Of a DNA stretch of 64,000 nt, positions 19,978 to 42,796 are shown in pieces. The notes beneath the pieces were generated by a model. It made no database searches. It was not told the DNA's origin and was given only the letters and a program-made list of their open reading frames with translations. Both the position numbers and the translations under genes were made by a program. Every line of letters begins with the position of its first letter. Within the stretch, counting starts at the first letter, position 1. The stretch is from a virus: positions 32,001 to 96,000 of the IMG/VR virus record IMGVR_UViG_3300025759_000063, one strand, 5' to 3'.

Positions 19978-20026
19978 TTAGGAACGAATGAGAGGTTAAT
20001 TTAGTGGGGTTGTGCCCCTTACACTA

Positions 20027-20227
20027 CTAGAACACTTTAAGGGGCTCAGTAACTGTTACCACTTCGGGGAACGTCCAACGGAACTCATAAAGTAGCTGCT
20101 CATCACTAACACCTTCCAGATTTTCACGCATATAATCAGACAGTGCACATTCAAGGTCCGAAGGTGTCATTCCGTCGATAGTTGCCTCGACGAGAGCATC
20201 AATCAAAATTTGACGATTAGCAAGCAT
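20027..20227 (-). CDS. Small acidic hypothetical protein
   Basis: 66 aa; C-terminal TEPLKVF* is encoded by the repeat itself; resembles 21676..21921. Confidence 0.65.
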   Translation of the reverse strand: MLANRQILIDALVEATIDGMTPSDLECALSDYMRENLEGVSDEQLLYEFRWTFPEVVTVTEPLKVF

Positions 20228-20290
20228 TTGAGTTACTTAAGGGGAAACGATTTAAGACTGTGAGAGGCACCTAGAAGCGCCTCTAAGGTA

Positions 20291-20443
20291 TCAGAACTCC
20301 ACGGGGAGTAGGGTAGGACCATCGGCGGCATAATTACCCGATTCGCTACCCTCACCGTCGCTCACAAGTGCATTCAGAATCTCAAGAATTTGAGTGCCAG
20401 TGTTACCTTGACGCAGGGCGGAGAGCATCAGTGTCTTGGACAT
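20291..20443 (-). CDS. Small hypothetical protein (50 aa)
   Basis: MSKTLMLSALRQGNTGTQILEILNALVS...PVEF; ATG 18 bp downstream of repeat copy 2. Confidence 0.6.
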   Translation of the reverse strand: MSKTLMLSALRQGNTGTQILEILNALVSDGEGSESGNYAADGPTLLPVEF

Positions 20444-20499
20444 GTTTGAGTCGGTTGCTTACACTACTGCTACACTTTATGTGGCTCAGTAACTGTTAC

Positions 20500-20673
20500 T
20501 CACCAACGGTCGGGTGTACTCAAGTCCTCAACATATGCCTCACACTTTTCCGCAGGTTCAAGCTTGAAGAGTTTCTCCCAATCAAGTTGATGAGGGTTAA
20601 AGTCTGCAAGTGCTTCAATCTCCAGAGTGATACGATAACGATGCTTCTGGGCCTGAAGATAACTGAGAGACAT
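20500..20673 (-). CDS. Small hypothetical protein (57 aa)
   Basis: MSLSYLQAQKHRYRITLEIEALADFNPHQLDWEKLFKLEPAEKCEAYVEDLSTPDRW; AGGAG RBS and sigma70 promoter upstream. Confidence 0.7.
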   Translation of the reverse strand: MSLSYLQAQKHRYRITLEIEALADFNPHQLDWEKLFKLEPAEKCEAYVEDLSTPDRW

Positions 20674-20700
20674 GATTCGCTCCTTTGTTGTGACTTGAGT

Positions 20701-20729
20701 ATTCTAGGATATCGGCGCCGAAATGTCAA
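20701..20729 (-). promoter_or_regulatory. Sigma70-like promoter
   Basis: Minus strand TTGACA-17 bp-TAGAAT. Confidence 0.8.
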
Positions 20730-20801
20730 GAATCGTCGGAGTATTTATCTGGCACGGTGACAATTTGCGGACCTTATGTGTGGGATTTTTGACCTTGTGG
20801 G

Positions 20802-20830
20802 TTGACAAAGTGCGGTCCTTATGTTATGCT
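20802..20830 (+). promoter_or_regulatory. Sigma70-like promoter firing into the repeat/DnaA-box block
   Basis: TTGACA-17 bp-TATGCT with extended -10 TG at 20822-20823. Confidence 0.65.
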
Positions 20831-20839
20831 CGCTAAGAT

Positions 20840-20976
20840 CACAAGGTCCTGAGGGCTTTATACACAAGACTTGGAGGGCTTTATACTCAAGGGCCCACAA
20901 GGTCCTGAGGGCTTTATACACAAGACTTGGAGGGCTTTATACTCAAGGGCCCACAAGGTCCTGAGGGCTTTATACA
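20840..20976. repeat. 56-bp tandem repeat (2 full copies + partial), iteron-like
   Basis: CACAAGGTCCTGAGGGCTTTATACACAAGACTTGGAGGGCTTTATACTCAAGGGCC at 20840 and 20896, partial at 20952; GAGGGCTTTATAC occurs 5 times. Confidence 0.95.
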
Positions 20977-21001
20977 AGATTTCAAGAGCTTTTCAATGAG
21001 T

Positions 21002-21042
21002 TTTTCCACAATTATCAACACTTTTCCACAAGATGTGGAAAA
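21002..21042. promoter_or_regulatory. DnaA-box-like cluster
   Basis: TTTTCCACA 21002 and 21022, TTATCAACA 21012, TGTGGAAAA 21034; followed by AT-rich tract to about 21108. Confidence 0.6.
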
Positions 21043-21093
21043 CTATAAAACTCTTAGCTATATTTTTTTAACCATTTATTAAATTAAAAACAT

Positions 21094-21125
21094 AAAAAAA
21101 AAAAAAAACACCCCTTGAGGGTGTT
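21094..21125 (-). terminator. Intrinsic terminator
   Basis: AACACCC-5 nt-GGGTGTT hairpin followed on the minus strand by a long T run. Confidence 0.75.
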
Positions 21126-21276
21126 ACTTAGGTCTTATAATCTCCGAGGTAGTGTATAGTACATCAGAGAGAAATTGTCTCGTTGGTGGTGACTTTGCAA
21201 TCAACACAGAGACTAGAATAAGAATCAAAATCTTCACTTGGTTAGCATAGAAGTTTGCAGATCTTGTCTTATTCAT
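21124..21276 (-). CDS. Small membrane protein (50 aa)
   Basis: MNKTRSANFYANQVKILILILVSVLIAKSPP...; abuts the preceding gene's stop. Confidence 0.55.
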   Translation of the reverse strand: MNKTRSANFYANQVKILILILVSVLIAKSPPTRQFLSDVLYTTSEIIRPK

Positions 21277-21278
21277 TC

Positions 21279-21611
21279 TCAACCCAGACGCATCGAAGAG
21301 AAGAAAGGAACGGTAGTTAGTCCTTGAACAGTGTTCATCTTAAGAAACCATTCTCCTGCTTTTTGGAATACACGATCACCACATTCTCCGTGTGCTTGAA
21401 GAATAGCATTCAGGCGAGACTTAGTGGTATTGGATTGCCAACCACCATCAAATAAGCGAAGAAAAGTCTCACCAATCTCTGCAATCTTTTTACCATGAAG
21501 GAATACAATAGAGAGATCATTTTGCTCATCATAGGTAACAACAGTATTGGCACTTTTCCAATTCTCGTTGTTAGTGATGGCATCATTCATTTGCTTTTCG
21601 ATCTTACGCAT
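21279..21611 (-). CDS. Conserved phage early protein
   Basis: LHGKKIAEIG...GGWQSNTTKSRLNAIL motif; downstream of repeat copy 3. Confidence 0.75.
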   Translation of the reverse strand: MRKIEKQMNDAITNNENWKSANTVVTYDEQNDLSIVFLHGKKIAEIGETFLRLFDGGWQSNTTKSRLNAILQAHGECGDRVFQKAGEWFLKMNTVQGLTTVPFFSSMRLG

Positions 21612-21675
21612 TTGGTTTTTTTGTTTGAGGTTTCTGTCTTACACTACTAGGACACTTTAAGTGGCTCAGTGAGCA

Positions 21676-21921
21676 TTAGGAAATCAAATCTTCTAGAATC
21701 TCATCACCATAGCAATCGACAATTTCTTCCTTTAATTGTTGCTCATCATAGTCATTCAGATTCTCCATGATAACATCATAGGCCATAATCATCAGAGTTT
21801 TAGTATCCATATCATCAACAATCATCTGGGCATAATTATCACGGAGATTGGAGAGTTGATCAGGAGTAAGAGGCATGATTTCAGATTTGAGGATTTCGGT
21901 GTAAAGATTAGAGTCAGACAT
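21676..21921 (-). CDS. Small acidic hypothetical protein
   Basis: ORF track; D/E rich. Confidence 0.65.
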   Translation of the reverse strand: MSDSNLYTEILKSEIMPLTPDQLSNLRDNYAQMIVDDMDTKTLMIMAYDVIMENLNDYDEQQLKEEIVDCYGDEILEDLIS

Positions 21922-22105
21922 TGGTCAGATCATTGATAGTGAGGACATGAACATCAGGAACAGATTCATCAAAATGTTCGGACCATTCTTGATACGATGC
22001 AACAGCATCATCAAGACGATTCTCATCTGTCAGTTTCATCACTTGTGCATGAATATCATCAAGAATGAGTGCCAACATCTTGTCTTTTTGATTGTTGTTC
22101 ATCAT
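21914..22105 (-). CDS. Hypothetical protein
   Basis: ORF track; overlaps next gene in operon style. Confidence 0.6.
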   Translation of the reverse strand: MMNNNQKDKMLALILDDIHAQVMKLTDENRLDDAVASYQEWSEHFDESVPDVHVLTINDLTNV

Positions 22106-22271
22106 CAGAAATTAGAGAACTTGAAAGTCAGTGAAAATCTTAAGTTGTGTTGCAGTGAAGATTCTATCATCACTACATTTTGAATACTTTTCGCGTTCTA
22201 GATCAACATAGGTTTCGAGTGCACTTTGTATTGCGCGATACTCATCATTTGACAATTCCAATTTCAGCATA

Positions 22272-22499
22272 TCAATCAAAACGGGATGAAACATCTTTTC
22301 CTGGGTTTTCATAGAATGAAACAGTCTCTGTAATCTGCGAAACATCATATGTGAATTGAACCATCTTTCCATCCTTCAGAATACGATACTGAGTCAATTC
22401 TTTCCAGAATGGTTGACCATTATCATCCCAACTCTGACGCTTTTCTTTGACAGGAACAATCTCATAATCCTGATTCGTTTTTAATGAGGTGTAAATCAT
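22272..22499 (-). CDS. Hypothetical protein
   Basis: ATG 19 bp downstream of repeat copy 4. Confidence 0.65.
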   Translation of the reverse strand: MIYTSLKTNQDYEIVPVKEKRQSWDDNGQPFWKELTQYRILKDGKMVQFTYDVSQITETVSFYENPGKDVSSRFD

Positions 22500-22542
22500 C
22501 TTTTTCGTTTGAACGTCTCACTACTAGGACACTTTAAGGGGC

Positions 22543-22884
22543 TCAGTAACCCTTACTCATCATGGAAAGTGCAGCATCCTGAGTGGTGCTATCTTGTGGC
22601 AGTTGTACTTTGCGAGCACAATCAATTGCATCAGCAAAGTTATCGAAACTACCGAAGTTCTTTTGATTGCCAACCCAGCAACCTTTGTACTCATAGATCA
22701 TTGCTTCGACAGAGAATACATCGACTTTGGTATCACGATTCACACCGTGCTTAATATAAACTTTTCCATCATTTCGAGTGTACTTATCAAAGGTGTTAGA
22801 CTTGAAAGTACGGGAGAAATCAGTCACAAACTCAGAGGTGAGATCAGTATTCTGAGCGAAGAGATTAGCAAAGTGAATTGTCAT
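22543..22884 (-). CDS. Hypothetical protein
   Basis: Lies exactly between repeats 5 and 4; stop TGA supplied by repeat 4. Confidence 0.75.
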   Translation of the reverse strand: MTIHFANLFAQNTDLTSEFVTDFSRTFKSNTFDKYTRNDGKVYIKHGVNRDTKVDVFSVEAMIYEYKGCWVGNQKNFGSFDNFADAIDCARKVQLPQDSTTQDAALSMMSKGY

Positions 22885-23180
22885 TTTTGAATTTCGTTTG
22901 AACCTTACACTACTGGTACACTTTAAGTGGCTCAGTAGACATTAGAGAGTGAACGTTTGCTCTACAATCACATCAAAATCTTCCGTCATTTTGACATAAT
23001 TCCACTCACCAATATCCTCTCCTTCTTGATAACAATGAATCAGATCATTTGCATCAGTCTTGACATAACAACCATCATCAAAGTTATCCTCATCGAGAAC
23101 ATAACCAGATGCAATCAGTGCTTCAGTAAAAGTCATTTTGTTGTGAAGATAAGTCTTAATCAGTGACATTTTTTCGTTAT

Positions 23181-23528
23181 TCATCGGAGATAAAGAAACC
23201 CACCGTATTGATCACAAATAGTGGGATTCTCAGTGAGTTGCTCAACATAGAATCGAATACCCTTTGCAGGTGCTTTTACACTGGCAGGTTTGTAACATGC
23301 ACCAGTGTTATTCTCCACAAACATATATGCAGAGCGTCCATGTTTACGTTCACCACCAGAGACCAAATAAGTCATCAGTTTGATGTACTTACGACCGAAA
23401 TCTGCTTCGACTTGGTAATAAGTATCATGACCAGATTCGATGGCATTAACTTTCCATTGGTCATTCAATTGCTCAATCAGAGTATCAACAAGGAACTCAG
23501 ATTTGGTTTGATTCAGAATAGCAGACAT
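23181..23528 (-). CDS. Conserved phage hypothetical protein
   Basis: GRKYIKL...MFVENNTG.CYKPASVKAPAKGIRF motif; probable start MSAILN. Confidence 0.7.
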   Translation of the reverse strand: MSAILNQTKSEFLVDTLIEQLNDQWKVNAIESGHDTYYQVEADFGRKYIKLMTYLVSGGERKHGRSAYMFVENNTGACYKPASVKAPAKGIRFYVEQLTENPTICDQYGGFLYLR

Positions 23529-23565
23529 TTTCTTTTGATTATAATTTAAGTGTTGAATTGTGCAA

Positions 23566-23817
23566 TCAGCAGGCACAGGTAAGTGCAGAATTGAACAGTT
23601 GCGGTTCGGTGTGCATATCAGTCACAATGTAACCATAACCCTCAACACGGGAATCTACCTCATACTGGAAATCTTTCTTGGTAATGTAGCGAATAGATTG
23701 CTTGCAGTTAGAGAAAGTCAGAATCTTGAGAATATGACGATTGGAGATAGTTCCATCCGCATACTTTACGGGATAGAAATCAACAATCATGTTAGCATCT
23801 TTGGAAGTGAGTTGCAT
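23566..23817 (-). CDS. Hypothetical protein
   Basis: GGAG RBS; downstream of repeat copy 6. Confidence 0.7.
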   Translation of the reverse strand: MQLTSKDANMIVDFYPVKYADGTISNRHILKILTFSNCKQSIRYITKKDFQYEVDSRVEGYGYIVTDMHTEPQLFNSALTCAC

Positions 23818-23876
23818 TTTTCTCCTTTGGGTTTCTGTCTTACACTACTGGAACACTTTAAGGGGCTCAGTGAGCA

Positions 23877-24020
23877 CTACTTGAAAACTGCTGTGCATCC
23901 TACAATCTTTGCCTTAGGATTACGTGCTAATGCAGTCTCACGCGCATCCTGATAGTTTACAGCTTCCACAATCTCTGAGAATACCTTACCTGCAACATAC
24001 AAATCAACTTTAACTCTCAT
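23877..24020 (-). CDS. Small conserved phage protein (47 aa)
   Basis: MRVKVDLYVAGKVFSEIVEAVNYQDARETALARNPKAKIVGCTAVFK; below track cutoff. Confidence 0.65.
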   Translation of the reverse strand: MRVKVDLYVAGKVFSEIVEAVNYQDARETALARNPKAKIVGCTAVFK

Positions 24021-24988
24021 GTGCTTAAATTATAGAGTTTGCCATGATTGTGCTTCCTTGACATCAGAATCATAATACTTCTGCATTATGCTGTCAATGA
24101 TAGGATACCACTCTTCATTAGAACTTGGATACCCACATTCTCTTGCTTCACGAAGAAACCTTAAAATGCAAGTTTCCTCATTAGGAGTAAGGTCAACGCG
24201 GTTCAAACTGTAAGTCCAGATGTTCATGATTTAGACAGAAGGAGTAACAGAAACTTCTTTAATGTTTAGTCCACAGAGTTGATTGTAGACACGATTATTG
24301 ATAAGGTCACAAGCACGTTTTGCACTCGATTTCTCATACCAAACGGTCACACATCCGTCGTTGGTCTCAACTCGAACTCGATAGTTTTTCATACTTTTGG
24401 AATTGAATGTGCTTTGTTGATGATTGTAACCCATTCGGTTGGGGGTGATAGTTTGTTGGAAACTTTCACCCACCGACCCTTAAACTTAACGATTGTGTAT
24501 TTCATAAATCACCACTCAGTTTGATGTGAACGATAATTCATCAGATAAGTTAGACAATCGTCTGCCTTTTTGAGTTCCTTTTCTTTCTGATACCTATCAG
24601 AGTGATATACACTCAAGCGGTCAACTTCTTTGAGAAGATTGAGTCGAAAGAAAGTGAACTCATCATCAGCAAAAAGTGTGCGGGGGTCTTGTGCTTTCAT
24701 GTTTGAGTATGCTTCTTACACTACTGGGACACTTTAAGGGGCTCAGTAACTATCAGGCAACTGCATCCTCATCACTCACAAGAGAAAGATCTGGCAGGTT
24801 ATTTACACGCGACTTCATACGGTTGTGCTTAGAAATTGTCCATCCGTTAGCATCAGCATCGTGCAGAACTCCATCTAGTTGACGACGCTCAGATTCGGTG
24901 TGAAAATGCCTTTCTTGGTTCATGATTTCAAATCTCAAGAGAACATAAAGATTGTACCAGATTTTATTCACTCTGGCAATGGTAGCTT

Positions 24989-25264
24989 TTACCTACCGCA
25001 AGGCACCTCTTCGTACCACGTTCTGACATAACCAGGACGCCATCTGTTGCCAGGAACATATTCTTCTCTGCGAATACGTTTGATACAATATCTGTGATAG
25101 AAGTGGTCTCTGTAATTATCACGCTTTCTTTCATGGCGATGATCACTATCCTCATGAACAAATGGCTCCCAGAACTGTTGCCAGGTGATAGCATTTGCAG
25201 GGATGGGAGAGAGTGCTAAGAGCACAGCAGTTAGTAACAGTTTCATGGTTAAAATAGACTCCAT
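24989..25264 (-). CDS. Secreted/signal-peptide small protein
   Basis: MKLLLTAVLLALSPIPANA signal-like sequence; REEYVPG...PGYVRTW.E.VPC C-terminus. Confidence 0.65.
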   Translation of the reverse strand: MESILTMKLLLTAVLLALSPIPANAITWQQFWEPFVHEDSDHRHERKRDNYRDHFYHRYCIKRIRREEYVPGNRWRPGYVRTWYEEVPCGR

Positions 25265-25268
25265 TTAT

Positions 25269-26174
25269 TTAACTCCAAACCTTTTCCATGTTGAAGTTTG
25301 CATAACTAAACTCTTCACGGTCAACAACCTTGAAAGTCCCATAATTGTTAGAGATAACATAACCTTCATGGCAAACAAACGTATTACCAATCATACAAGC
25401 AATGTCATCGGTTTCTTTAATGAACAAGAACAAATCATCCTTCATAGATGCAACCAACTTCCAAAGCCGTAGCAGGTTGATGTCACATTCACATTTTTCT
25501 GCAATTTCATCCTCAACAATGGGTTGACCCTCACGGATGCAGGCATTGATTGCTTTTTTGATTTGTGTTGCCTTGCGAGCACTTACAAAATCACATAGAG
25601 TGGACATTTGACGGGCAAATGCTGCAACATCTGCCAAATCTTCACGGTATGGGTTTAACTCAACCTCGGGTTGAATAAACAGACAATTTTGGGTGCTGGG
25701 AAGGTCAAGAACCAAAGGATAAGCATCAACCTCACGCAAATCATTCCCACCACTATAAACAGTGTGTGGGGCTACAATTATATCTTGAGAGATAAACTCT
25801 GGGAAGACATATGTCAAAGTGTTGGGGCGATAGGTATCAGAACCACCGACACCAATCCAATCACCTTGGACAATAGTTTTGGTGCGAGGAAGATACTTAA
25901 AGCAAAGATGCAGAATATCTGCAACTCTACCCTCATAGAACTTATCAATCTCCCGATGAGAATGTGCAATCTTGATTTTTACTTTGTTAAAGGCACTTTT
26001 TGTAGCCACAAACCATTTCCCATTTGCAGGATTTGTTCCCCAAACCAAGCTAGGACTCCCATCAATTTTTGTGCTGATGATAGAATCAGGGTCCGAGAAC
26101 CAATCAAGAACCGAAAGGTCACCCGTTAGGATAGAATCTTCTACGTGTTCAAGGTGGATATTTTGTGCCATCAA
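25269..26174 (-). CDS. DUF6267-like protein with nucleotidyltransferase (ligase-like) motifs
   Basis: HLEHVED N-terminus, STKIDGSPSLVWG, QGD, HEGYV and KVVDR motifs. Confidence 0.65.
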   Translation of the reverse strand: MMAQNIHLEHVEDSILTGDLSVLDWFSDPDSIISTKIDGSPSLVWGTNPANGKWFVATKSAFNKVKIKIAHSHREIDKFYEGRVADILHLCFKYLPRTKTIVQGDWIGVGGSDTYRPNTLTYVFPEFISQDIIVAPHTVYSGGNDLREVDAYPLVLDLPSTQNCLFIQPEVELNPYREDLADVAAFARQMSTLCDFVSARKATQIKKAINACIREGQPIVEDEIAEKCECDINLLRLWKLVASMKDDLFLFIKETDDIACMIGNTFVCHEGYVISNNYGTFKVVDREEFSYANFNMEKVWS

Positions 26175-26211
26175 TTTACCATCGCTACACTACTAGGACA
26201 CTTTAAGGGGC

Positions 26212-26679
26212 TCAGATAGAAACAATCTCTTTAATGTAATAGGTGGAAGAATTGTAGCATTCATATTGCTTTTCTTTCTTATACTTTGTCCGATGAACTA
26301 TTGCTTTAATATTACTATATGTGTGACCCTTATTGCGTGCCCAAGTTGATAACTGCTTTACAATTTCTTCTGTCCCATCTCTAAAAATTATCTTATAAGT
26401 CTTTGCGTTAGGATTATTTTCTTTTAGTTGTTTTAGGTTTGCCTTTTTACCCTCTTCACTATGAACATTCACCCGTCCTCTATACCAACCATCTGGGATT
26501 TCATCACATTTGACCATCTTATTATCTGTTCCATTTGTTATCCAAATCTTACCTTTATTTGGAGGTGGTATATTCATTTCTTGTGGTGACAATAGCTCAT
26601 AATCATCTTCCATCAAGATGAAATCTTTTCCAGATACGTTGAAACATTCGTTCAACGATTGAACGCTTACTTTATTCAT
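26212..26679 (-). CDS. Homing-endonuclease-associated DNA-binding (NUMOD-like) protein, no clear catalytic domain
   Basis: NKGKIWITNG.DNKMV...IPDGWYRGR, HSEEGK and NPNAKTY motifs; late promoter upstream; stop inside repeat 8. Confidence 0.55.
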   Translation of the reverse strand: MNKVSVQSLNECFNVSGKDFILMEDDYELLSPQEMNIPPPNKGKIWITNGTDNKMVKCDEIPDGWYRGRVNVHSEEGKKANLKQLKENNPNAKTYKIIFRDGTEEIVKQLSTWARNKGHTYSNIKAIVHRTKYKKEKQYECYNSSTYYIKEIVSI

Positions 26680-26701
26680 TCTGCTTTATGTGTCGCAGTA
26701 T

Positions 26702-26777
26702 TATTTATACAAGAAAAGGGGCATTTCTGCCCCCATTCTCTTTGCTTAGTTGCGACACATAAGCATCATTATTTATA
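26702..26777 (-). ncRNA. Putative small late RNA (about 55 nt) between two TATAAATA promoters, complementary to the downstream leader
   Basis: TATAAATA at 26770-26777 and 26702-26709; TGCTTA-loop-TAAGCA hairpin; GGGGCA-GAAA-TGCCCC-TTTT terminator; 12-bp perfect complementarity 26751-26762 vs 26686-26697. Confidence 0.55.
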
Positions 26778-27071
26778 TCACTCAACAATGTCGTTGTAAG
26801 TATTTTGAACTTTACCAACAAACTCTTGACGCTGTTCGGGAGTCAGAAGATTGTTGCGAACAAAATTAATCAAAGTGAAAAGTCCAACAAGTTGCATTAT
26901 ACCATTGAACACAGGAATTGCATCCACAACCATCACAACCTCATGAATTATCAGTTGTGCAACAATTACAACAAAGAGAATAGTTGCGGAGATTCCAACT
27001 TTTTTGAGAACATCGTTGGTAACATTCTCATTGACGAAGGTCTTGATTTGTGCGATTTTGTCGTTCATCAT
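26778..27071 (-). CDS. CAAD/CURT1 (CurT)-like thylakoid membrane protein
   Basis: Two hydrophobic helices then VDAIPVFNGIMQLVGL...FVRNNLLTPEQRQEF, matching the CAAD pattern (ai..iPll..l.elvGl....F...Ll....Rqel). Confidence 0.7.
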   Translation of the reverse strand: MMNDKIAQIKTFVNENVTNDVLKKVGISATILFVVIVAQLIIHEVVMVVDAIPVFNGIMQLVGLFTLINFVRNNLLTPEQRQEFVGKVQNTYNDIVE

Positions 27072-27137
27072 TTCAAAAGTTTAATAGTTTTTGTGGGAGC
27101 AGTGTGCTCCTCACACTACTGGAACACTTTAAGGGGC

Positions 27138-27956
27138 TCAGTAGACAGCAATCAATTCATTTGCTTTCTTTCTACTTCCACCATTTGCTGCAATAGTTCT
27201 AGACACTTGAATTGGATAGATTGTGGCATTTTTGTATAGTTCTCTGGTGATGGAAACGTCATTATTAGATACAATCACTTTAATACCCTTTGCAGCAAGA
27301 GATTCTGCAAGTTGTGCTAGTTTAACCTGCTGGTCTGATGTAAACCCATCAGTCGCATAGCTTGTGAAGTTTGATGTATCAGATGCAGGAACATATGGTG
27401 GGTCAAAATAGACAACATCACCTGCTTCCAAATCTTCATAAAGAGATAAATCTTCAAATGAAAGTGATGTGAACCGCACCAATTGTTTGGTGAGGAAATA
27501 CATCCTAAATTTCATCATCTCTTCAGATGGACAAGTTGGTTTTTCATATTTACCAAAAGGAACATTAAATCCACCATTTTTATTGTATCTTGACAGTCCA
27601 TTAAAGCAGTGGCGATTCAAATAGATGAATAGTCTTGCCCTTTCTTTAGAATCTGTTGATTGATTGAAGTGTTCTCTCAAATCAAGATATGACTCTTTAG
27701 TATTATTCTCTGGAATGAACAGTTCTTTACAATACTGAATAAAACTATCCTCATTTGGATCTAACAAATTCTGATAAATTGCCACCAAATCTTTATTCAC
27801 ATCATTGAGAATATACTGCTCTGCTGATGTGTTCAGTGCAACAGCAAGGCTCCCACCAAAGGGTTCACAATAACGCTTTGGACTACCAATATGGGGAGTA
27901 AGATGGGGAAGGACTCTATATTTGTTTCCTGCCCACTTTAGAAAGGGTTTATGCAT
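27138..27956 (-). CDS. dam: DNA adenine methyltransferase (Dam/D12 class)
   Basis: FLKWAGNK, EPFGGS, FNGLSRYNKNGGFNVPFG, DPPY, VSN motifs. Confidence 0.93.
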   Translation of the reverse strand: MHKPFLKWAGNKYRVLPHLTPHIGSPKRYCEPFGGSLAVALNTSAEQYILNDVNKDLVAIYQNLLDPNEDSFIQYCKELFIPENNTKESYLDLREHFNQSTDSKERARLFIYLNRHCFNGLSRYNKNGGFNVPFGKYEKPTCPSEEMMKFRMYFLTKQLVRFTSLSFEDLSLYEDLEAGDVVYFDPPYVPASDTSNFTSYATDGFTSDQQVKLAQLAESLAAKGIKVIVSNNDVSITRELYKNATIYPIQVSRTIAANGGSRKKANELIAVY

Positions 27957-29448: not shown

Positions 29449-29451
29449 CTA

Positions 29452-33577: not shown

Positions 33578-33627
33578 CAGAATAAGAGAGATTTCTTATT
33601 ATTTATAAATCCTAATTCATCACAAGC

Positions 33628-33656
33628 AAAAAAGAGAGGGACTGTGGACAGCCCCT
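33628..33656 (-). terminator. Intrinsic terminator
   Basis: Minus strand GAGGGGCTGTCCACAGTCCCTC followed by TCTTTTTT. Confidence 0.6.
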
Positions 33657-33664
33657 CAACTGGT

Positions 33665-34399: not shown

Positions 34400-34537
34400 T
34401 TAGTAATCGTAGTTTCCGTTGATGTAATCATTCAGATTGAAATTGCTAGCATCTTCATAGAGTTCGGCAAAATCATCATCGGAGATGTAATCAAAGTTTT
34501 CAAGCTCTTCAATTTGAATGTCGTCGAAAGGATTCAT
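34400..34537 (-). CDS. Very acidic 45-aa protein
   Basis: MNPFDDIQIEELENFDYISDDDFAELYEDASNFNLNDYINGNYDY; first ORF after repeat 15. Confidence 0.6.
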   Translation of the reverse strand: MNPFDDIQIEELENFDYISDDDFAELYEDASNFNLNDYINGNYDY

Positions 34538-34579
34538 AGTTTCGTTTGTTCCTTACACTGTTGGTACACTTTAAGTGGC

Positions 34580-34843
34580 TCAGTTTACCTTATCGTAGAC
34601 TGATTCCCTAGACTTAACAAATTTTAAGTCTTTCCATGATTGATTGTAACAGAGAATCAGGGTTCTTTCATTTCGATGTAATCCTGAATGTACTAGATCT
34701 TCTTCAGGTTTTGGTTTTACATTGATTTCAATGGTGAGATAATCTTTACATTTGAAGTAAATCCATCCTTCAATGTCAACACCAACACTCTGTTTCCACA
34801 GAACATAGTCATTTACTTTTGGTTCATACATATGCAAGTTCAA
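34580..34843 (-). CDS. Hypothetical protein
   Basis: YEPKVNDYVLW..EGWIYFK; stop inside repeat 15. Confidence 0.65.
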   Translation of the reverse strand: MNLHMYEPKVNDYVLWKQSVGVDIEGWIYFKCKDYLTIEINVKPKPEEDLVHSGLHRNERTLILCYNQSWKDLKFVKSRESVYDKVN

Positions 34844-35144
34844 GTGGAGTTAGTTTTGGTTTCATAGCTGAGTATGGAGAAGTATTCCCAAACTCTACCG
34901 AATCTCCGCACTTGGAGGAGTTAATAGGGGCGTGATAGGATTCGGTTTTGGTGTTGAAGAATCCCCAAATACTTCGCGCACTAGCACCATCGTTGTAAAC
35001 AAATTTATAATGATTGCGAATCCAAATAGCAATGATGTTGCGTTTAAATTCTTCAACTTCATAACTGTAACCCTCTGGTGCTGTGTGTTTGAATGATTCA
35101 GGTAAGGAAAGAATCAACGATTCCGATTTCTTCGTTCGCTTCAT
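34824..35144 (-). CDS. Conserved cyanophage hypothetical protein
   Basis: FKHTAPEGYSYEV...SIWGF...APIN...TSPYSAM motif. Confidence 0.7.
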   Translation of the reverse strand: MKRTKKSESLILSLPESFKHTAPEGYSYEVEEFKRNIIAIWIRNHYKFVYNDGASARSIWGFFNTKTESYHAPINSSKCGDSVEFGNTSPYSAMKPKLTPLELAYV

Positions 35145-35343
35145 TACTTAATTCCAAACGTGTTGCTCGATAAACATTTTCCTGAATCCGATCATCATAA
35201 GAACTCTCACATTCATCACGCCAATCAATCAAAACATCGTGACATTGATTGTCATTCTCAGCAACAACTGCAATCAATCCTCCATACTCAGAACTTGGAA
35301 AAGGAACCCAGTAATTAACAAGATACAAATACTTTTGTGCCAT
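35098..35343 (-). CDS. Conserved hypothetical protein
   Basis: YWVPFPSSEYGG motif; sigma70-like TTGAAG-17-TATAAT upstream at 35367-35395. Confidence 0.7.
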   Translation of the reverse strand: MAQKYLYLVNYWVPFPSSEYGGLIAVVAENDNQCHDVLIDWRDECESSYDDRIQENVYRATRLELSNEANEEIGIVDSFLT

Positions 35344-35628
35344 TATCGAATAAAAATTACTTAGTGATTATATCAGAGATTGTAAAATTCTTCAAGATAA
35401 TAGGGTTCAGAGACTTGTAGTTTTGAAGCTTCTTCTTCAATCATTTTCCAAAATTCAATTTCGGAATCTGTCGGTTGTTCTTTGTTCAAATTTTCTTTCA
35501 TCATTTGGTCTAATTTTCTTAAAATAAAAACCTAGGATTAGTGACGTTACTGACACAATTCCTAGGTATATCATGCAAGCAAGAAGAATGCTCATTGAAC
35601 TCTACACAATTAGGACACTTTAAGTGGC

Positions 35629-35841
35629 TCAGTCATCATAAACTCTACATTCAAGTGCATCGGGGTTTGCATCACAATAAAGTTCTAATGGAGTTGGATC
35701 GTGGTCATCATTTGGATGATTCTTTTTGTATTCTTTAAGAGCTTCTAATTCCTCTTCAGTATGCCTGCGAGACTGTGCAGAAATCATTGGATTGTCAAGG
35801 ATAGATTGATCCTTTTCAATATGTTTGTCGATGTTTTCCAT
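35629..35841 (-). CDS. cp12: CP12 Calvin-cycle inhibitor (cyanophage type)
   Basis: DPTPLELYCDANPDALECRVYDD C-terminus and cyanophage-type N-terminus. Confidence 0.93.
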   Translation of the reverse strand: MENIDKHIEKDQSILDNPMISAQSRRHTEEELEALKEYKKNHPNDDHDPTPLELYCDANPDALECRVYDD

Positions 35842-35872
35842 TTGTCTTTTTGTTTCTTATATTTATTTTTAA

Positions 35873-36094
35873 TTAACCACCTTTTTCTTTCATACTTCGC
35901 ACCAAATACTCAGTAAACCTTTCCATTCGTGAAGGGCAAACTGCCTGAGGATATTGATTGATTGCATCCTTAAGTGCAACCAATTCATTCCACTCTTCTT
36001 CTGATAATTTTGTTTTGCCGCTAGGAGGAGTAATTGTCATGGTTGTGTCAGAATACCCTAACATTCTATCAGTATTTAATGCAGAACTTAGCAT
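35873..36094 (-). CDS. Hypothetical protein
   Basis: ORF track; LSEEEWNELVALKDAI. Confidence 0.55.
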   Translation of the reverse strand: MLSSALNTDRMLGYSDTTMTITPPSGKTKLSEEEWNELVALKDAINQYPQAVCPSRMERFTEYLVRSMKEKGG

Positions 36095-36353: not shown

Positions 36354-36530
36354 TAACTTTCAGTTTTCTCTTTGTTTAGTTCTACATTGTGCCAATAGAT
36401 CTCAAGTGCTTTCACAGATTCGGGAGTTTCTTCCCATTCCCAAGTGTCACCTTTGGTACTTACATATGTACGTGTTGCCATACTATTCCTCCAAAATTAA
36501 ATTATAAAACAAAATAAGAAAAAAGTCAAA

Positions 36531-39140
36531 TTATACAGTAACTGCATATTTTACAACCTTTATTTCTGCTGATGTTGCATTTGCCATATCAACTTGTAAA
36601 AGTAAATTTGACCCACTTATTGTTGTTGAGAATGTGGCAAGATAGTTATTGGTTGCAACAGATCCACTCTCAACCAAACTTGCAGTAGAATCATTGTGAA
36701 TGACTAACAAATCCGTACATTGATAATCATTTCCTTGTGATATTTGAACTTGGTATCTAGCAGATCTATATGTTGATATTGGGAATGAATCTATTGTGGA
36801 TGTGGTAAGAGTCGATAATTGAGTTACTGCTGTTCCTATTCCAAGAATGTCAGAAAGATTCATAGAACCACCAGCAACGGTGGCATATCCAACATCATCG
36901 ACAAAGGCACTTAACCCCGTTGGTGCATTTGTCAAATCAGTATAGTCACCAGAGAATGTGGATATAGAAACTAAGTTGTTTACATATCCTTCTGTTGCAT
37001 AACCAACCACAATACTAGATGTTACAAATCCTACGTCATTTGAGAAAGAACTTAATGCCGTTGGAGTATTCGTTAAGTCTCCATAGTCTCCCGAGAATGT
37101 GGATATAGAAACTAAGTTGTTTACATATCCTTCTGTTGCATATCCTGTAACTACACTAGAAGTTACAAAACCAACATCATTACTAAATGAACTTAATGAA
37201 GTTGGTGTGTTTACAAGGTCGTTATAGTCACCCGAGAATGTAGATATGGAAACTAAGTTGTTTACATATCCTTCTGTTGCATATCCTACAACAATACTAG
37301 AAGTTACAAATCCTACATCATTACTAAATGAACTTAATCCTACTGGTGTGTTGGTAAGATCGTTGTAGTTTCCGGAGAATGTAGATACTGCAACGTGCTG
37401 TAAAACGTAACCTTCTGTTGCGTGACCAACAAGAGATGCAGCAGTAATAAATCCCAAATCATTTGAGAAAGAACTTAATCCTACTGGTGTGTTGGTAAGA
37501 TCATTGTAGTTTCCAGAGAATGTAGATATGGAAACAAGATTGTTTACATAAGTTTCGGTGACATATCCAACCAAATTGGGTGGAGTGTAAGTGAAAACAC
37601 CAGTGGTATCATCATAAGAAAGATTTGCTGTTCCTGGAGAACCTACTGTTACAGAAAAAGCATCAAGATCAGCACCACCGCCTCCACCACCACCTACAAC
37701 AGTTTCAAATACAAACTTACGTGAAGGATGATCATATTTCAGAAACTTACCATTATACGCAGATGGATTTGTTGCAATACCAACAACATCATCCAGATAT
37801 TTAAGTTGTGTTTCTCCGCCACCACCAAGAGTAGACAACTGATGTTGAATTCTATTGATAAATGTTCTGTAATGTTCTTGAAGTTGTTTAAACGTAACAA
37901 AATTCTGATCCAATGGGGTCAAAGGATCTTTATTGTCAGTTTGTGGAGGTTCTGTAATAGTTTCTTGAAGATATTCTTTTTGAGACTCATTAAAGTGCTC
38001 AAAGATTTCTTCCAAATGCTTAATCTTATCATTTAAAAGTGCATTACTTTTCTGATAATTTTCATAGAGTTTTTCCAACTCTTTCTTATCAGTTTTCTTT
38101 GCAGAAATTACTTTCTTAGATAGACTATCAAAGTTACTCTTTAATGATTCTATTTCCTCATCATAGCATTTTACCTCAGGCAATACCTGCAGTTCCGGAA
38201 TTGAATTCTTAATCTCAACAATCTTTTGACTGATGATATTAAGTTCTTCATCATAATACTTTGGTTCGGGAAGAAGATTGATAGATTCCTTTAATTCGCC
38301 AATCTTACTCTCAATCTCAACAATTTGATCATCATAATACCTAACTTCCGGAAACTCAGGAATTGTTGGAATACTTGAGTTTACTTGATCTATCTTCTCA
38401 TGGAGATGAATTATATTTTCATCATAATACTTAATCTCAGGAACTACAGGAATTGAAGCATTAACTTCCGCAAGTCTTTGCTCAATCTTACTAATCTGCT
38501 CATCATAACACTTTACTTCAGGAAGACTCTCAATCTGATTCTTAATAGAATCAATTGTAGTCAGAAGTTCTTCAAGCTCTCTATCATAATATTTGATTTC
38601 AGGAACTACTGGAATTGAATTCTTAACTTCTACAATTACATTTCTAAGTTGATCTAAATCCTCATCATAAAGGATTGGTTCAGGTATCTTTGGAATTTCA
38701 GACCTGATACCGTCAATCTCTTCTCTTAAGATAAAAAGATTTTTGTAGATGTAAGTTGCATCAAATTTATCTTCTTTAATTCTATCAATATAAGATTTTA
38801 ATTCATCAATTTTACTATCGTATTTTGCAGTACTTACAATATTTTCTCTTATTTGATCTATGTTACTTGATATATTATAGACCAATTCTTCTATATTTTT
38901 CTTCTCAGGTTCTTCTTTAATATAGTCGTCTTCTAAAACTACTTCTACTTCTTTCGCAATTTTTATATCATTGAATAAAAGTTTTGGACTTAATAATTTT
39001 TTATTATTTGCATTATTATCTTCAATTATTTTTTGGCATTCTAATTCATCCAAAAGATCTAATCTTTTTTCTTCAAATAATTCTTTTGGAGATTTTATTT
39101 TTTTAGACATAAATTCTGCGTCAGATCTTTTTTCCATCAT
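36531..39140 (-). CDS. Repeat-rich virion/fibre-like protein
   Basis: PEIKYYD coiled-coil repeats, GGGGETQLKYLDDV, five TFSG.Y.DL.N.P repeats, C-terminal SARYQVQI domain; ATAAATA upstream. Confidence 0.65.
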   Translation of the reverse strand: MMEKRSDAEFMSKKIKSPKELFEEKRLDLLDELECQKIIEDNNANNKKLLSPKLLFNDIKIAKEVEVVLEDDYIKEEPEKKNIEELVYNISSNIDQIRENIVSTAKYDSKIDELKSYIDRIKEDKFDATYIYKNLFILREEIDGIRSEIPKIPEPILYDEDLDQLRNVIVEVKNSIPVVPEIKYYDRELEELLTTIDSIKNQIESLPEVKCYDEQISKIEQRLAEVNASIPVVPEIKYYDENIIHLHEKIDQVNSSIPTIPEFPEVRYYDDQIVEIESKIGELKESINLLPEPKYYDEELNIISQKIVEIKNSIPELQVLPEVKCYDEEIESLKSNFDSLSKKVISAKKTDKKELEKLYENYQKSNALLNDKIKHLEEIFEHFNESQKEYLQETITEPPQTDNKDPLTPLDQNFVTFKQLQEHYRTFINRIQHQLSTLGGGGETQLKYLDDVVGIATNPSAYNGKFLKYDHPSRKFVFETVVGGGGGGGADLDAFSVTVGSPGTANLSYDDTTGVFTYTPPNLVGYVTETYVNNLVSISTFSGNYNDLTNTPVGLSSFSNDLGFITAASLVGHATEGYVLQHVAVSTFSGNYNDLTNTPVGLSSFSNDVGFVTSSIVVGYATEGYVNNLVSISTFSGDYNDLVNTPTSLSSFSNDVGFVTSSVVTGYATEGYVNNLVSISTFSGDYGDLTNTPTALSSFSNDVGFVTSSIVVGYATEGYVNNLVSISTFSGDYTDLTNAPTGLSAFVDDVGYATVAGGSMNLSDILGIGTAVTQLSTLTTSTIDSFPISTYRSARYQVQISQGNDYQCTDLLVIHNDSTASLVESGSVATNNYLATFSTTISGSNLLLQVDMANATSAEIKVVKYAVTV

Positions 39141-39158
39141 TTTGATTTTAAATATTTA

Positions 39159-39497
39159 TTATGAAGGAAGAGTCGCAGATCCATTTACTATTGCATTTCC
39201 CTCAAATCTTTTGGTTCTTTTTCCTGCTGGGGAAATTAAAAATATATCATAATAGTATCTACCAGGATCTAAGTTTTTTGTGACAGAAGATCCCAGAGAT
39301 ACTGTTGTAATACCAAGTGTGGTATCTATTGTTGGATTTAAATTGTAAGAAGTAGTAGCACCAGGATGCTTTTTCAGATTCGATTCAACAGTATAAGATG
39401 CAAGACTTGGGATACTATTATCGGGATTCAGAATCTTAAAAGTAGAATCAAAATCCTCTCCCTGCTCAATTACAATATTAACTGCTAAAGTTGACAT
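39159..39497 (-). CDS. Small virion structural/adaptor protein
   Basis: IVIEQGEDF...LDPGRYYYDI...RFEG motif; CTAAATA upstream. Confidence 0.65.
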   Translation of the reverse strand: MSTLAVNIVIEQGEDFDSTFKILNPDNSIPSLASYTVESNLKKHPGATTSYNLNPTIDTTLGITTVSLGSSVTKNLDPGRYYYDIFLISPAGKRTKRFEGNAIVNGSATLPS

Positions 39498-39538
39498 CTC
39501 TCGTAACTACTATCCTAATCATATTTAGTTTATGATTC

Positions 39539-39754
39539 TTACAACTTACCACCAACAGTTCCTTCATGAGTGACTGAATCTCCCCAACCGTCTTGTCGCA
39601 TTTTTAAAAAAAATCTTGTGGCGCTCACGCAGTTTTTCTCAGTAAGTGATGTAAGAATACATTTACCATCTTTGTCATAAGAGTTCCACATTTTCCAACG
39701 TGATTGCTCCACATAGAAAGCACCATCATCATAAAATTGTTTTTCTTCGGGCAT
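39539..39754 (-). CDS. Hypothetical protein
   Basis: ORF track; ends GTVGGKL. Confidence 0.65.
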   Translation of the reverse strand: MPEEKQFYDDGAFYVEQSRWKMWNSYDKDGKCILTSLTEKNCVSATRFFLKMRQDGWGDSVTHEGTVGGKL

Positions 39755-39898: not shown

Positions 39899-40237
39899 TC
39901 ATTTTTTACCCATGCCCTTTCTCTTTCTTCCAGAAGTCTTGTCATTGCTGCTAGTGTTTCGAGTGGAATCCATGCGGGTTCCTCTTTTGCGAACTGGACT
40001 TGAACTTCTGTTACTTTTCGGTTGAGACTTTTGCTCCAGGTTTCTCTTGTGAGTTTTACGTGTGCGATTGGGTTTTCCATTTTTATAATCAAGTTTAATT
40101 TCTTTTGGTTTAAGTTTGTGTCTGTCTATGTATTTGTCAAGATGTTCCTGACATGAAAACCAACAGACTTTACCATCATCTTTGTGCTCCAATCGGAACC
40201 CAAAGGTTTCATAAGGAAACAAATTAACCTCTTTCAT
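39899..40237 (-). CDS. Hypothetical protein with basic tail
   Basis: FPYETFGFRLEH...CWF.CQEHLDKY; the overlapping ORF 39892..40092 may also be real. Confidence 0.55.
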   Translation of the reverse strand: MKEVNLFPYETFGFRLEHKDDGKVCWFSCQEHLDKYIDRHKLKPKEIKLDYKNGKPNRTRKTHKRNLEQKSQPKSNRSSSPVRKRGTRMDSTRNTSSNDKTSGRKRKGMGKK

Positions 40238-40710
40238 TTATGCTCCCAAAAATCATCCCAATCTTTCTTGGTAGATGCAATATCAATTTTAGCACGTTGA
40301 TTGTAGTATTCTGCTTCACGCAGATTATAATCACGACACTTTTCTTTTTCCTGATCTGATGCTGCTTTATCGCACATTGCATTCAGTTCTTCTTCTGTAT
40401 AATTTGTATTAAACTGAATAATACTTCTATCAGAAAGACTAAAATCACCAACTGGACTTGGAGTATCTCCAGTAATCAATGACATTGCCAGATTTACCTT
40501 TTCTAATTTCTTGTGATGATACTCCTTCCAGTCTTTCAAAGCATCCATTAGATCTGTGAAGAATGTCACACTCGAATAGTTATCATCATCAAGATACTCT
40601 CCAACTATATCAAAAAGACGACACTTCATGTTTTGATGAAGCAAGTCAACTGTTTTTGAATCAATTTCCTTTGTCATTGAGTTTCTCCTCAAGTTCTTCA
40701 ATTCTAACAT
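40234..40710 (-). CDS. Hypothetical protein
   Basis: ORF track. Confidence 0.65.
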   Translation of the reverse strand: MLELKNLRRNSMTKEIDSKTVDLLHQNMKCRLFDIVGEYLDDDNYSSVTFFTDLMDALKDWKEYHHKKLEKVNLAMSLITGDTPSPVGDFSLSDRSIIQFNTNYTEEELNAMCDKAASDQEKEKCRDYNLREAEYYNQRAKIDIASTKKDWDDFWEHK

Positions 40711-40942
40711 AAAGATCTTCGATTAGTGAAGTGAGATTGTAAAAGTTGACTTTTCCAAACTCATAGTATCCATTGTCTGCTGTAATTTCACCGAAGATTT
40801 CTCTCCATTTATGTGTTCTTTCAGTCATCACAAGTGTCCATAGTTTTGTTGGTAATAAAGGAATCTTTGCATTGATGGTCTAATACCTAAACTCTCACAA
40901 CATCTCAAATAAGAGATGAATTCATACCAAGGTGCTGTAGGA

Positions 40943-41152
40943 TCAGTGTCCGCCATATCTACACCTCATTGTGTGAAGATACTTAAGAACTTCTTCTCGA
41001 ACTTCCATCAGTTCATTGTAACACTTTTGATTGTGTGCACATTGGCGAAGTGATGAATCTGGTTTGTGAACAGATTCGATAAAGATGTCAAGTCCCCTCA
41101 ACATCTTATCTTCTTTAGATTCACCGTCAGGAATACTGTTCTGGTCTTTCAT
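40943..41152 (-). CDS. Hypothetical protein
   Basis: LDIFIESVHKPD..LRQCAHNQKCYNELM motif. Confidence 0.65.
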   Translation of the reverse strand: MKDQNSIPDGESKEDKMLRGLDIFIESVHKPDSSLRQCAHNQKCYNELMEVREEVLKYLHTMRCRYGGH

Positions 41153-41331
41153 TTGGATTCTAGTTCAATGGGACAATCTGAGTATTCCTTGAGAGTTTGT
41201 AGAATCTCTTGCTTTTCTGATTGGGTGATAGAATTGTTATCAAACATTCTGTTTGCAATTCTATTGAAATCGGAGCAAGAAAGTTCTAGAGACAGCATTA
41301 ACTCTAACATGGCAATCCTCCAGGATTACAT

Positions 41332-41526
41332 CTATTTAACAACCTCCCAATGGTCATCAGATCCCTCACTCATCCAGAACCAGTATTTGCCACTGATAGA
41401 TGCAAGAAACATCTTCCCATCTTTACGATTCTCCACTCTACATGTATGAAGGCTATTCATCATGTTAGCAAAACGATTTTTTGCCTTTGATGACTTCGGT
41501 TTGACGCAAATTAGATCAGTTTTCAT
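41332..41526 (-). CDS. Hypothetical protein
   Basis: Follows repeat 17; PKSSKAKNRFAN.M. Confidence 0.7.
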   Translation of the reverse strand: MKTDLICVKPKSSKAKNRFANMMNSLHTCRVENRKDGKMFLASISGKYWFWMSEGSDDHWEVVK

Positions 41527-41571
41527 TTGGGTGGTGGAATCTAATACTAGAACAGTTTAAGTGGCTCAGAT

Positions 41572-41594
41572 AAAAAAAGAGACCCGAAAGTCTC
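41572..41594 (-). terminator. Intrinsic terminator with UUCG loop
   Basis: Minus strand GAGACT-TTCG-GGTCTC-TTTTTTT. Confidence 0.8.
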
Positions 41595-41600
41595 ATTTCT

Positions 41601-42713
41601 TCACAATTTATCCAGAGGAATCAAACGATTCATAGAGCGAAGTTCTTTGTGCTTCTCATCATCAGCAAACTGGGGAATTGCGCCAATGATAGTGAAAGGA
41701 CGCTCGGAAGGGAGAGCAATTTGAATTCCTGCCAACTGACTATTGATCAATTTAATAGTTTGAGCATAGAACATCTCAAGATCATTGGTAAAGTTCTTTA
41801 CTTCTTCACGCAACTTGTCAGCAGTTTTTTCAGTACAGTAAAGAACAATATGAGTGTGATGACCCTGAGTAGTATTTGCAAGAATTTGGTCAACCCAGCA
41901 GCGCCGAGCATTAGTCTTACCAGTAGAATAAAGAACCAACTGATTCTCATTCAAAGGATTGGGGGTGTCTGGAAGAGAAATTCCCAGAGATTTGACTTCT
42001 TTACAATCTTCAAGGTACTCAATCCACTCAGAACGAGTCTTATCAATAATAATTGGGTCACCATCTGGTGTAGACTCTTTAAGAATACGATTAGAAATCT
42101 TTGTAATTGTACCCGCAATATTACTATAGAAACTTTCAATTCCAACTTCAGTATAAAGCCAGGTATCAATAGATGCCTGATCGCAGTTAAGAAGTCCTTT
42201 GCTAACCATTGCACAACCAGCAGTCACAAAGTCGTTCATATTTGCACGACGAGCAACCAAGTGATTGTTGGCAATCAGACCATTAACAATATCAGATGCT
42301 TCTTCGTTGACTTCTTCATCATATGAGAAGATAGCAACAAGAATATATTTCCAACCCGCAACAAGTGCTGCACGAATACGGGTACGACCATCTTTAATTT
42401 TTCCTTTAGTAGAGACGATTGGTGGGAATGGATTATAATCCCAACCGTGCTCTTCATAACTATATGCAATATCATCAGTAGCATCATCCTTATTCTGCTC
42501 ACTGCGAACTGCAACGTTATTCAATTCATCATCATAAAGTTTGTAACCAGAAATATCAATCTTGGCAAATTTTACAAACTTTCCATATTTTTGCTTGGCA
42601 TTTAGTTGTTCTTTAGACCAACGACCCTCATATTGCTTAGGATCAAGGTCTGCGCAAGTAACCTTACCGAATCCAACTCCAGCAGTAGACATAATAATTT
42701 GCTCCAATAGCAT
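41601..42713 (-). CDS. ParB/Srx-like N-terminal domain protein
   Basis: SYEEHGW...PPIV....KIKDGRTRIRAA motif; bounded by repeats 18 and 17. Confidence 0.6.
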   Translation of the reverse strand: MLLEQIIMSTAGVGFGKVTCADLDPKQYEGRWSKEQLNAKQKYGKFVKFAKIDISGYKLYDDELNNVAVRSEQNKDDATDDIAYSYEEHGWDYNPFPPIVSTKGKIKDGRTRIRAALVAGWKYILVAIFSYDEEVNEEASDIVNGLIANNHLVARRANMNDFVTAGCAMVSKGLLNCDQASIDTWLYTEVGIESFYSNIAGTITKISNRILKESTPDGDPIIIDKTRSEWIEYLEDCKEVKSLGISLPDTPNPLNENQLVLYSTGKTNARRCWVDQILANTTQGHHTHIVLYCTEKTADKLREEVKNFTNDLEMFYAQTIKLINSQLAGIQIALPSERPFTIIGAIPQFADDEKHKELRSMNRLIPLDKL

Positions 42714-42796
42714 TTTGTAAAGGATGTAAGAGAGGAAACTGCCAGAGGCATCTCCCTCACATCACTAGAACATTTTAAGGGGCTCAGTGAGATTTG

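Follow-up and report, generated by a model that had tools for sequence, protein, structure and literature searches.

Repeated elements in the small-gene block of a T4-like cyanophage are likely one lineage's version of a two-part promoter and a seam for recombination

What is the role of a short element that recurs 18 times in one region of a cyanophage genome, and how are the genes between its copies exchanged? In this study, the question was examined for a 64,000-nucleotide stretch of DNA, called the window below, which covers positions 32,001 to 96,000 of the IMG/VR virus record IMGVR_UViG_3300025759_000063 and is part of a 112,201-bp viral contig (about 52% complete). The initial annotation had described the element as a promoter and insertion site dividing the region into integron-like gene cassettes. 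The results suggested that the repeats are likely this lineage's version of a two-part promoter of many T4-like cyanophages (Kyanoviridae), which is also used as a recombination seam. For several events, sequence comparison showed genes inserted, lost or swapped at the elements, apparently by ordinary recombination and not by an integron-like system.

The source virus is a T4-like cyanomyovirus far from the cultured ones. Protein matches were overwhelmingly to Synechococcus and Prochlorococcus phages, and the best match of its DUF6267 protein was in the Synechococcus phage SynMITS9220M01, with 57.6% identity. The small-gene block that holds the element consists of about 60 tiled genes, all on one strand, mostly shorter than 150 amino acids (aa) and without annotation. 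The block genes with a family match encode a Dam-type methylase, a helicase, a DUF6267 protein, CP12, a CAAD-domain protein, Kyano_Gp96 and members of three more DUF families. There are about 58 gene boundaries to these 18 elements. The units headed by an element are operons of 1–14 genes, not single-gene cassettes.

The core of the element, CTGAGCCMCTTAAAGTGT, was matched 18 times on the minus strand with at most one mismatch (window 20032-42787), against 0.09 matches expected from shuffles, which bears out 18 near-invariant copies in the same orientation. The rest of the contig held no further core copy; the sole other match had four substitutions and lay on the opposite strand. The copies are listed below, where ORF stands for open reading frame, L024 and L019 are two loci of the closest relative, which is one IMG/VR contig with 84–98% identity to the window, and "upstream" and "downstream" boundaries follow the direction of transcription.

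20021-20050, minus strand: copy 1, with the core at 20032-20049 and a -10-like TAGTGT
20461-20490, minus strand: copy 2, with one core mismatch
21641-21670, minus strand: copy 3, upstream of the Kyano_Gp96 gene (21279-21611)
22518-22547, minus strand: copy 4, whose TGA is the stop of ORF 22543-22884
22907-22936, minus strand: copy 5, a core match
23842-23871, minus strand: copy 6, right after which L019 has an extra gene of about 250 bp
24718-24747, minus strand: copy 7, a core match
26187-26216, minus strand: copy 8, putative promoter of the DUF6267 gene (25269-26174) and downstream boundary of both an inserted block and an HNH insertion
27113-27142, minus strand: copy 9, whose TGA is the stop of the Dam methylase gene (27138-27956)
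30056-30085, minus strand: copy 10, upstream boundary of the inserted block (26216-30066)
32117-32146, minus strand: copy 11, putative promoter of the helicase gene (30912-32102) and partner in a motif-to-motif indel
32670-32699, minus strand: copy 12, a G15C variant and partner in the motif-to-motif indel
32950-32979, minus strand: copy 13, a core match
33875-33904, minus strand: copy 14, a G15C variant whose TGA is the stop of ORF 33900-34055
34555-34584, minus strand: copy 15, whose TGA is the stop of ORF 34580-34843
35604-35633, minus strand: copy 16, whose TGA is the stop of cp12 (35629-35841)
41541-41570, minus strand: copy 17, a G15C variant, the sole copy with an intrinsic terminator directly upstream, and downstream boundary of a replaced 370-aa gene
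42759-42788, minus strand: copy 18, with one mismatch, upstream boundary of the replaced 370-aa gene

Positions within the element were counted from the C of CTGAGCC (position 0). Across the 18 copies, positions 0–18 were near-invariant, at about 2 bits each, and positions 22–31, the -10-like part with the consensus AGTAGTGTAA, carried about 1–1.5 bits each. TAGTGT or TAGTAT at positions 24–29 has the TAnnnT form of a -10 box, and CTGAGC lies 17 bp upstream of it. The start of the next gene was found 37–74 nt from the core start, and at 43–47 nt in 12 of the 18 copies, in agreement with the claim that each copy sits just upstream of an ATG. On the other side, a stop codon was favoured at positions -8 to -6. 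Six upstream ORFs, with their ends at 22543, 26212, 27138, 33900, 34580 and 35629, stop at the TGA of the element itself; the reuse was thus as first described, but the count had been five, without 33900. One copy is read through by ORF 20027-20227, as annotated. The late-promoter-like NATAAATA stands upstream of the genes 26212-26679 and 32981-33577 and of cp12 (Pfam CP12), as annotated. This word occurs 34 times on the gene strand of the whole contig and 0 times on the opposite strand.

The element belongs to a family found before small genes between the tail-fibre and baseplate modules of related phages. The proximal half is shared and consists of AAAGTGT at the spacer end, a short pyrimidine linker and a TAnnnT -10 (TATAGT or TAGTGT; here mostly TAGTGT). 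The distal half at the -35 place, here ACTGAGCCMC, is private: it is near-invariant within a genome and unlike between lineages. At least 13 cognate copies were found in the cultured SynMITS9220M01 and 12 in S-SM2. The proximal half is alike in these two phages (AAAGTGT or AAAGCGT, then CCC, then TATAGT), but not the distal half: in SynMITS9220M01 it is TTACTCACCT, in S-SM2 GGGGGGTCGC. The shared half, used to scan viral contigs, gave more than 119 loci, with a near-uniform box in each contig and at least 10 box types between contigs. The cognate elements of SynMITS9220M01 and S-SM2 precede orthologous genes, namely those for DUF6267, the helicase, Gp96, a 45-aa protein and a 139-aa protein. 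Since elements with different boxes stand before orthologous genes, whole promoter sets differ together from one lineage to the next. In a BLAST search of 50,697 phage records, the element gave only partial matches of 22–23 nt, in SynMITS9220M01 and one single-cell virus record; no record of a cultured phage had the core itself.

The core of the window was unchanged in lineages whose coding DNA is only 66–70% identical, including a 184-kb relative that is 88% complete. In this relative, the motif was limited to the same small-gene block, with 11 copies on one strand within 12.6 kb. The core is kept over this divergence more strictly than the -10 part, which argues for a sequence-specific reader and against neutral homogenisation. 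That the distal box is near-invariant per genome and yet lineage-specific suggests a reader of this box.

The 18 repeats are most likely early-type promoters of this phage. All copies lie on one strand with near-constant spacing to the ATG. The layout CTGAGC-17-TAGTGT matches TTGACA and TATAAT at 3/6 positions each, and the key T and A and the final T of the -10 are present in most copies. This agrees with the description of a sigma70-spaced geometry with a non-canonical -35 and a conserved spacer. The -10-to-ATG spacing is about 15–17 nt, and likewise in the syntenic small-gene block of Syn9, where the upstream regions were inspected. From the ATG at positions 43–47 and the usual distance between a -10 box and the start, a leader of only 5–10 nt would follow. 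Further evidence came from the gene for a 64-aa protein, which carries the motif here and has a perfect TTGACA-17-TATAAT promoter in place in SynMITS9220M01 and S-SM2. The perfect sigma70 promoter at the orthologous gene supports the view that the motif occupies a promoter position and that these phages use two promoter classes.

Two results tell against promoter activity. The hexamer at the -35 place, CTGAGC, matches TTGACA at 3/6 positions only, and because of this a generic sigma70 scan left the element below threshold and did not pick it up. The promoter half of the initial annotation is supported by sequence logic only, namely by strand, ATG spacing, the TAnnnT 17 bp after CTGAGC and the cognates in relatives. 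For the proximal half, the probable reader is the RNA polymerase of the host, carrying the primary sigma factor, and the predicted transcription start lies about 5–10 nt ahead of the ATG. The distal box, which takes the -35 place, would probably be read by something beyond the generic -35 contact, and the genes behind it would fall into an early or middle timing class. A -35 "TXXG" signal has been reported for Synechococcus tRNA genes (PMC11726456); it fits the TGAG of this element and not the cognate boxes of other lineages, and was set aside. The literature on P-HM2, AR9 and Ma-LMM01 held nothing bearing on the element motif.

The private box may point to a promoter with two keys. The host polymerase would read the shared half, a factor co-evolving with the phage would read the private box, and the shared half would double as a recombination seam for the whole family, so that an incoming cassette lands under the box of the recipient. 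This extension is tentative, and we consider it possible rather than probable. If true, phages without MotA and AsiA would have here a functional equivalent of sigma appropriation, and a lineage would keep its regulatory identity while genes flow freely. Candidates for the putative reader were sought among the conserved small proteins of the block with Pfam and PHROGs, which gave only families of unknown function. MotA and AsiA (PF09158, PF09010) had no match at E <= 1 in five genomes, the contig and four related ones.

Recombination at the element was examined by comparison with relatives. The following units of the window were gained, lost or replaced; L084, L001 and L017 are loci of a second related lineage.

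32147-32669, minus strand: one-gene cassette with a 139-aa gene (32234-32653, phrog_1987), missing in L024 and relocated in the L084 lineage
41570-42763, minus strand: replaced cassette with a 370-aa gene (41601-42713), in place of which L024 has an unrelated 401-aa gene
26216-30066, minus strand: 3.9-kb block between two copies of the element, absent in L084, L001 and L017; its genes encode the 213-aa and 478-aa proteins, the Dam methylase, a CAAD-domain protein and an HNH-like protein

Ten indel or replacement events separate the window from its closest relative. In one of them, a 522-bp motif-to-motif unit with the 139-aa gene is missing in L024. The junction motif of L024 is a hybrid: its upstream flank is that of one window copy, and its variant bases and downstream flank are those of the following copy; the crossover therefore took place inside the first 14 nt of the core. 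In the swap of the 370-aa gene for the 401-aa gene (blastp E >0.7), identity was 100% through the last base of the upstream core and resumed at the first base of the downstream core. Another replacement, at 27949-30031, concerns the two genes of 213 aa and 478 aa beside the Dam methylase. In their place, L024 has two genes of 161 aa and 467 aa that are unrelated to them, and the junction on the upstream side falls at the ATG that follows a promoter element. The 213-aa and 478-aa genes were assigned to no family beyond a PHROG of unknown function, and they may form a variable partner module of the methylase.

Insertions were also found at element edges. At 26212-26777, the window has a 558-bp insertion relative to L024, which abuts the 5′ edge of a core and uses the TGA of this core as its stop. 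Its gene encodes a 155-aa HNH-endonuclease-like protein, has two TATAAATA motifs upstream and looks like a free-standing homing-endonuclease gene. The extra gene of L019 (L019:560-860) lies between promoter copy 6 and the gene of this copy and is flanked by a 17-bp direct repeat. The repeat corresponds to the first codons of the gene, and a truncated downstream half of the promoter follows. In L084, L001 and L017, the junction that replaces the 3.9-kb block lies inside a motif. The cultured SynMITS9220M01 shares the adjacency without the block, which indicates that the block was inserted in the lineage of the window. The L084 lineage has the 139-aa gene elsewhere and two units in reversed order, with junctions at motifs.

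The comparison of synteny breaks with the motif, which had been proposed as a check, gave support in part. Among the gene boundaries, 12 of the 18 with a motif and 12 of the 40 without one were hit by breaks (one-sided Fisher p = 0.01, odds ratio 4.7), but only 19 of the 46 breakpoint clusters lay in the motif zone. The claim of a recombination or insertion site thus stands for the clean motif-to-motif and core-bounded junctions, but the majority of the breakpoints lie elsewhere. The association between motif and breakpoints is real but partial.

Comparison between lineages placed the junctions within the element itself. In several contig pairs with different boxes, a stretch of 250–600 bp with 92–98% identity set in precisely where the box ends and the shared half starts; upstream of this point, the DNA was unrelated. 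Among 178 loci, the promoter zones make up 4% of the sequence and held 41% of the internal left and 27% of the internal right ends of homology blocks. The box of the window was found with DUF6267 proteins 50–57% identical to that of the window, and other boxes with proteins at 69–71%. Since the box type does not track DUF6267 similarity, cassettes move between lineages and end behind the box of the recipient.

The pathway proposed for these exchanges is general recombination. Sequences of 20–30 bp that are present in many copies in each genome, and in part also in other lineages, would offer short homology to the general homologous recombination of the phage. Unequal exchange between two copies would delete or insert whole units, and a double exchange in two flanking copies would swap the genes between them. 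Exchange within the shared half would put a cassette behind the box of another lineage.

Several points weigh against a seam of this kind. About 60% of the synteny breakpoints lie away from motifs, and the breakpoints compared with the share of motif-bearing gene boundaries reached only p = 0.09. The ends of BLAST segments served as breakpoints, and the relatives compared do not count as independent. Identity between the window and its closest relative was patchy, with no clear steps at motifs and with mosaic patches elsewhere. In addition, selection for intact transcription units alone could enrich the surviving junctions at promoters.

The last point leads to the strongest alternative, in which the element is only a promoter: genes would be gained and lost anywhere by illegitimate or microhomology-based events, selection would keep whole transcription units, and junctions would pile up at promoters. 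In its favour, the enrichment over motif-less gene boundaries is modest. Half of the events against the closest relative (5/10) are without the motif. Among these is an insertion of 477 bp at 30427-30912, seen against L024 as well as L084, whose junction shows an 8-bp overlap; its 146-aa gene has its own TATAAATA (30894) and is a late-promoter cassette within the early-type block. The extra gene of L019, inserted just downstream of a promoter, has its 17-bp direct repeat on its flanks. The precise junctions are against it. The crossover of the 522-bp indel lies in register inside the core and left one hybrid copy, identity around the 370-aa gene stops and resumes at the core edges to the base, and the homology of other lineages begins exactly at the border of box and shared half in several independent pairs. 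Such in-register junctions are not expected from chance end-joining. The promoter-only explanation was therefore considered unlikely, and a promoter that is also a recombination seam was preferred.

A second alternative takes the core as a nucleic-acid hairpin, that is a terminator, a protector of RNA 3′ ends or an intercistronic processing site, which would resemble the stem-loops of the PeSL system described below but overlap the promoter. The core does hold a 5+5 dyad, CACTT-A-AAGTG, and an outer dyad pairing ACTG with CAGT, and a G+C-rich hairpin of about -11 kcal/mol is formed by the cognate of S-SM2. In this lineage, fold energies of -0.5 to -9 kcal/mol are weak and do not surpass those of shuffles, and the dyad is broken in 8 of the 18 copies. 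Variation at positions 8 and 15 was never compensated among 161 distinct copies, and outer stem pairing was not above that of a shifted control. Searches for a regular stem-loop or terminator gave one directly upstream of copy 17 only and another about 60 nt upstream of copy 11; folding of the other upstream regions did not exceed that of shuffles. With weak folds, no covariation and terminators near two copies only, a hairpin, terminator or attC-like structure was rejected, and the hairpin explanation is very improbable. The least probable alternative is an attachment site of a dedicated, integron-like recombination system, the recombinase of which would be encoded in another part of the genome. 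It has in its favour that the core junctions are precise and that the recombinase could lie outside a contig that is only about 52% complete, but a tyrosine recombinase (PF00589) had no match in the contig, the 88%-complete relative or the complete SynMITS9220M01, the core is without a stable fold or compensatory change, the crossover point varies (inside the core, at its end or at the box border), and short-homology recombination is efficient in T4-type phages (PMC2839356).

A serine recombinase (PF00239) likewise had no match in the contig, and the statement that the window contains no integrase was upheld. Integrons have a tyrosine-recombinase integrase encoded next to the array, folding attC sites, and promoterless cassettes served by one platform promoter. 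The block resembles them in its tandem gene units, which are split by a repeated site and are gained, lost and reordered. It differs in that the element is conserved in sequence and not in structure, with no structured attC-like site. Each unit also has its own promoter-like element, several inner genes carry a late-type motif, and the exchange points vary within the repeat. Given no recombinase match in the genomes searched, weak uncompensated folds and few terminators, the integron-like label fails, and so does the stem-loop half of the promoter-early stem-loop (PeSL) system.

PeSLs are repeated early promoters with stem-loops in the hyperplastic regions of RB49/phi1, T4/PST and KVP40/nt-1 (PMC2839356, PMC4122927). 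Through them, indels and replacements arise and mini-circles are formed, with no recombinase dedicated to the task (Arbiol et al. 2010, PMC2839356; Comeau et al. 2014, PMC4122927), and their cassettes were likened to integrons by their own authors (PMC2839356, PMC4122927). The elements of the window, putative early-type promoters by their sequence, are similarly crowded in a hyperplastic block of small ORFans: all 18 lie inside 23 kb in which most of the small genes could not be annotated. Here as well, elements form the boundaries of indels and replacements between close relatives (the 522-bp indel, the 370-aa swap and the 3.9-kb block), with short-repeat recombination as the proposed mechanism and no dedicated recombinase. 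The differences are that a regular stem-loop or terminator is missing (directly adjacent in 1/18, another about 60 nt off), that a lineage-private box stands at the -35 place instead of the sigma70 consensus, that the spacer is conserved, and that the host and phage family are others, here Kyanoviridae. By analogy, the element would work like the promoter half of a PeSL. In the cyanophage S-PM2, the density of PeSLs was judged too low to explain the variable region (Puxty et al. 2015, PMC4503421).

Early genes of the cyanophages S-PM2 and Syn9 have sigma70-like upstream motifs (review PMC2984593). The likeness to such early-gene elements lies in the position before small genes, in a syntenic block between tail-fibre and baseplate genes. 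The Syn9 upstream sequences are unlike the element in the -35 and spacer part. T4 middle promoters combine a MotA box at about -30 with a sigma70 -10 and are read by MotA with AsiA. The likeness to them is one of layout only, a host-type -10 with a phage-specific box in the -35 place, and the contig and the four related genomes differ from T4 in having no MotA or AsiA homologue. Cyanomyoviruses are without T4 Alt, ModA/ModB, MotA and AsiA, and their early/middle control has been called unresolved (review PMC2984593).

A promoter class with a shared and a private half, conserved at the level of bases over long divergence, offers a handle on early and middle transcription in cyanophages. The junctions show how the accessory block of abundant ocean and lake viruses, which carries host-derived genes such as cp12, is rebuilt at promoter repeats within and between lineages without an integrase. 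They carry the PeSL idea, developed for enterobacterial and vibrio phages, over to cyanophages; for S-PM2, PeSL-mediated shuffling had been considered an unlikely explanation of the variable gene region (PMC4503421).

Some other features of the region were observed. A 3.06-kb segment at 36482-39546 is missing from the closest relative. Two genes lie in it, one of 112 aa and a tail-fibre-like one of 869 aa with a late-type AATAAATA motif (39160), and the 3′ end of the segment has a near-consensus sigma70 promoter, TTGACT-17-TATAAT, at 36529-36501 on the minus strand, which by its sequence would restart transcription of the small genes downstream. The 64-aa protein (41332-41526, phrog_1653) is 67–75% identical to its counterparts in SynMITS9220M01 and S-SM2 and is a strongly conserved small protein, probably immediate-early. 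The region 20700-21126 has few genes, tandem repeats whose copy number is unlike that of L019, and a strong terminator at 21125-21107. The G+C content was 0.28–0.31 at window positions 1-18000 and about 0.40 in the small-gene block (18000-36000).

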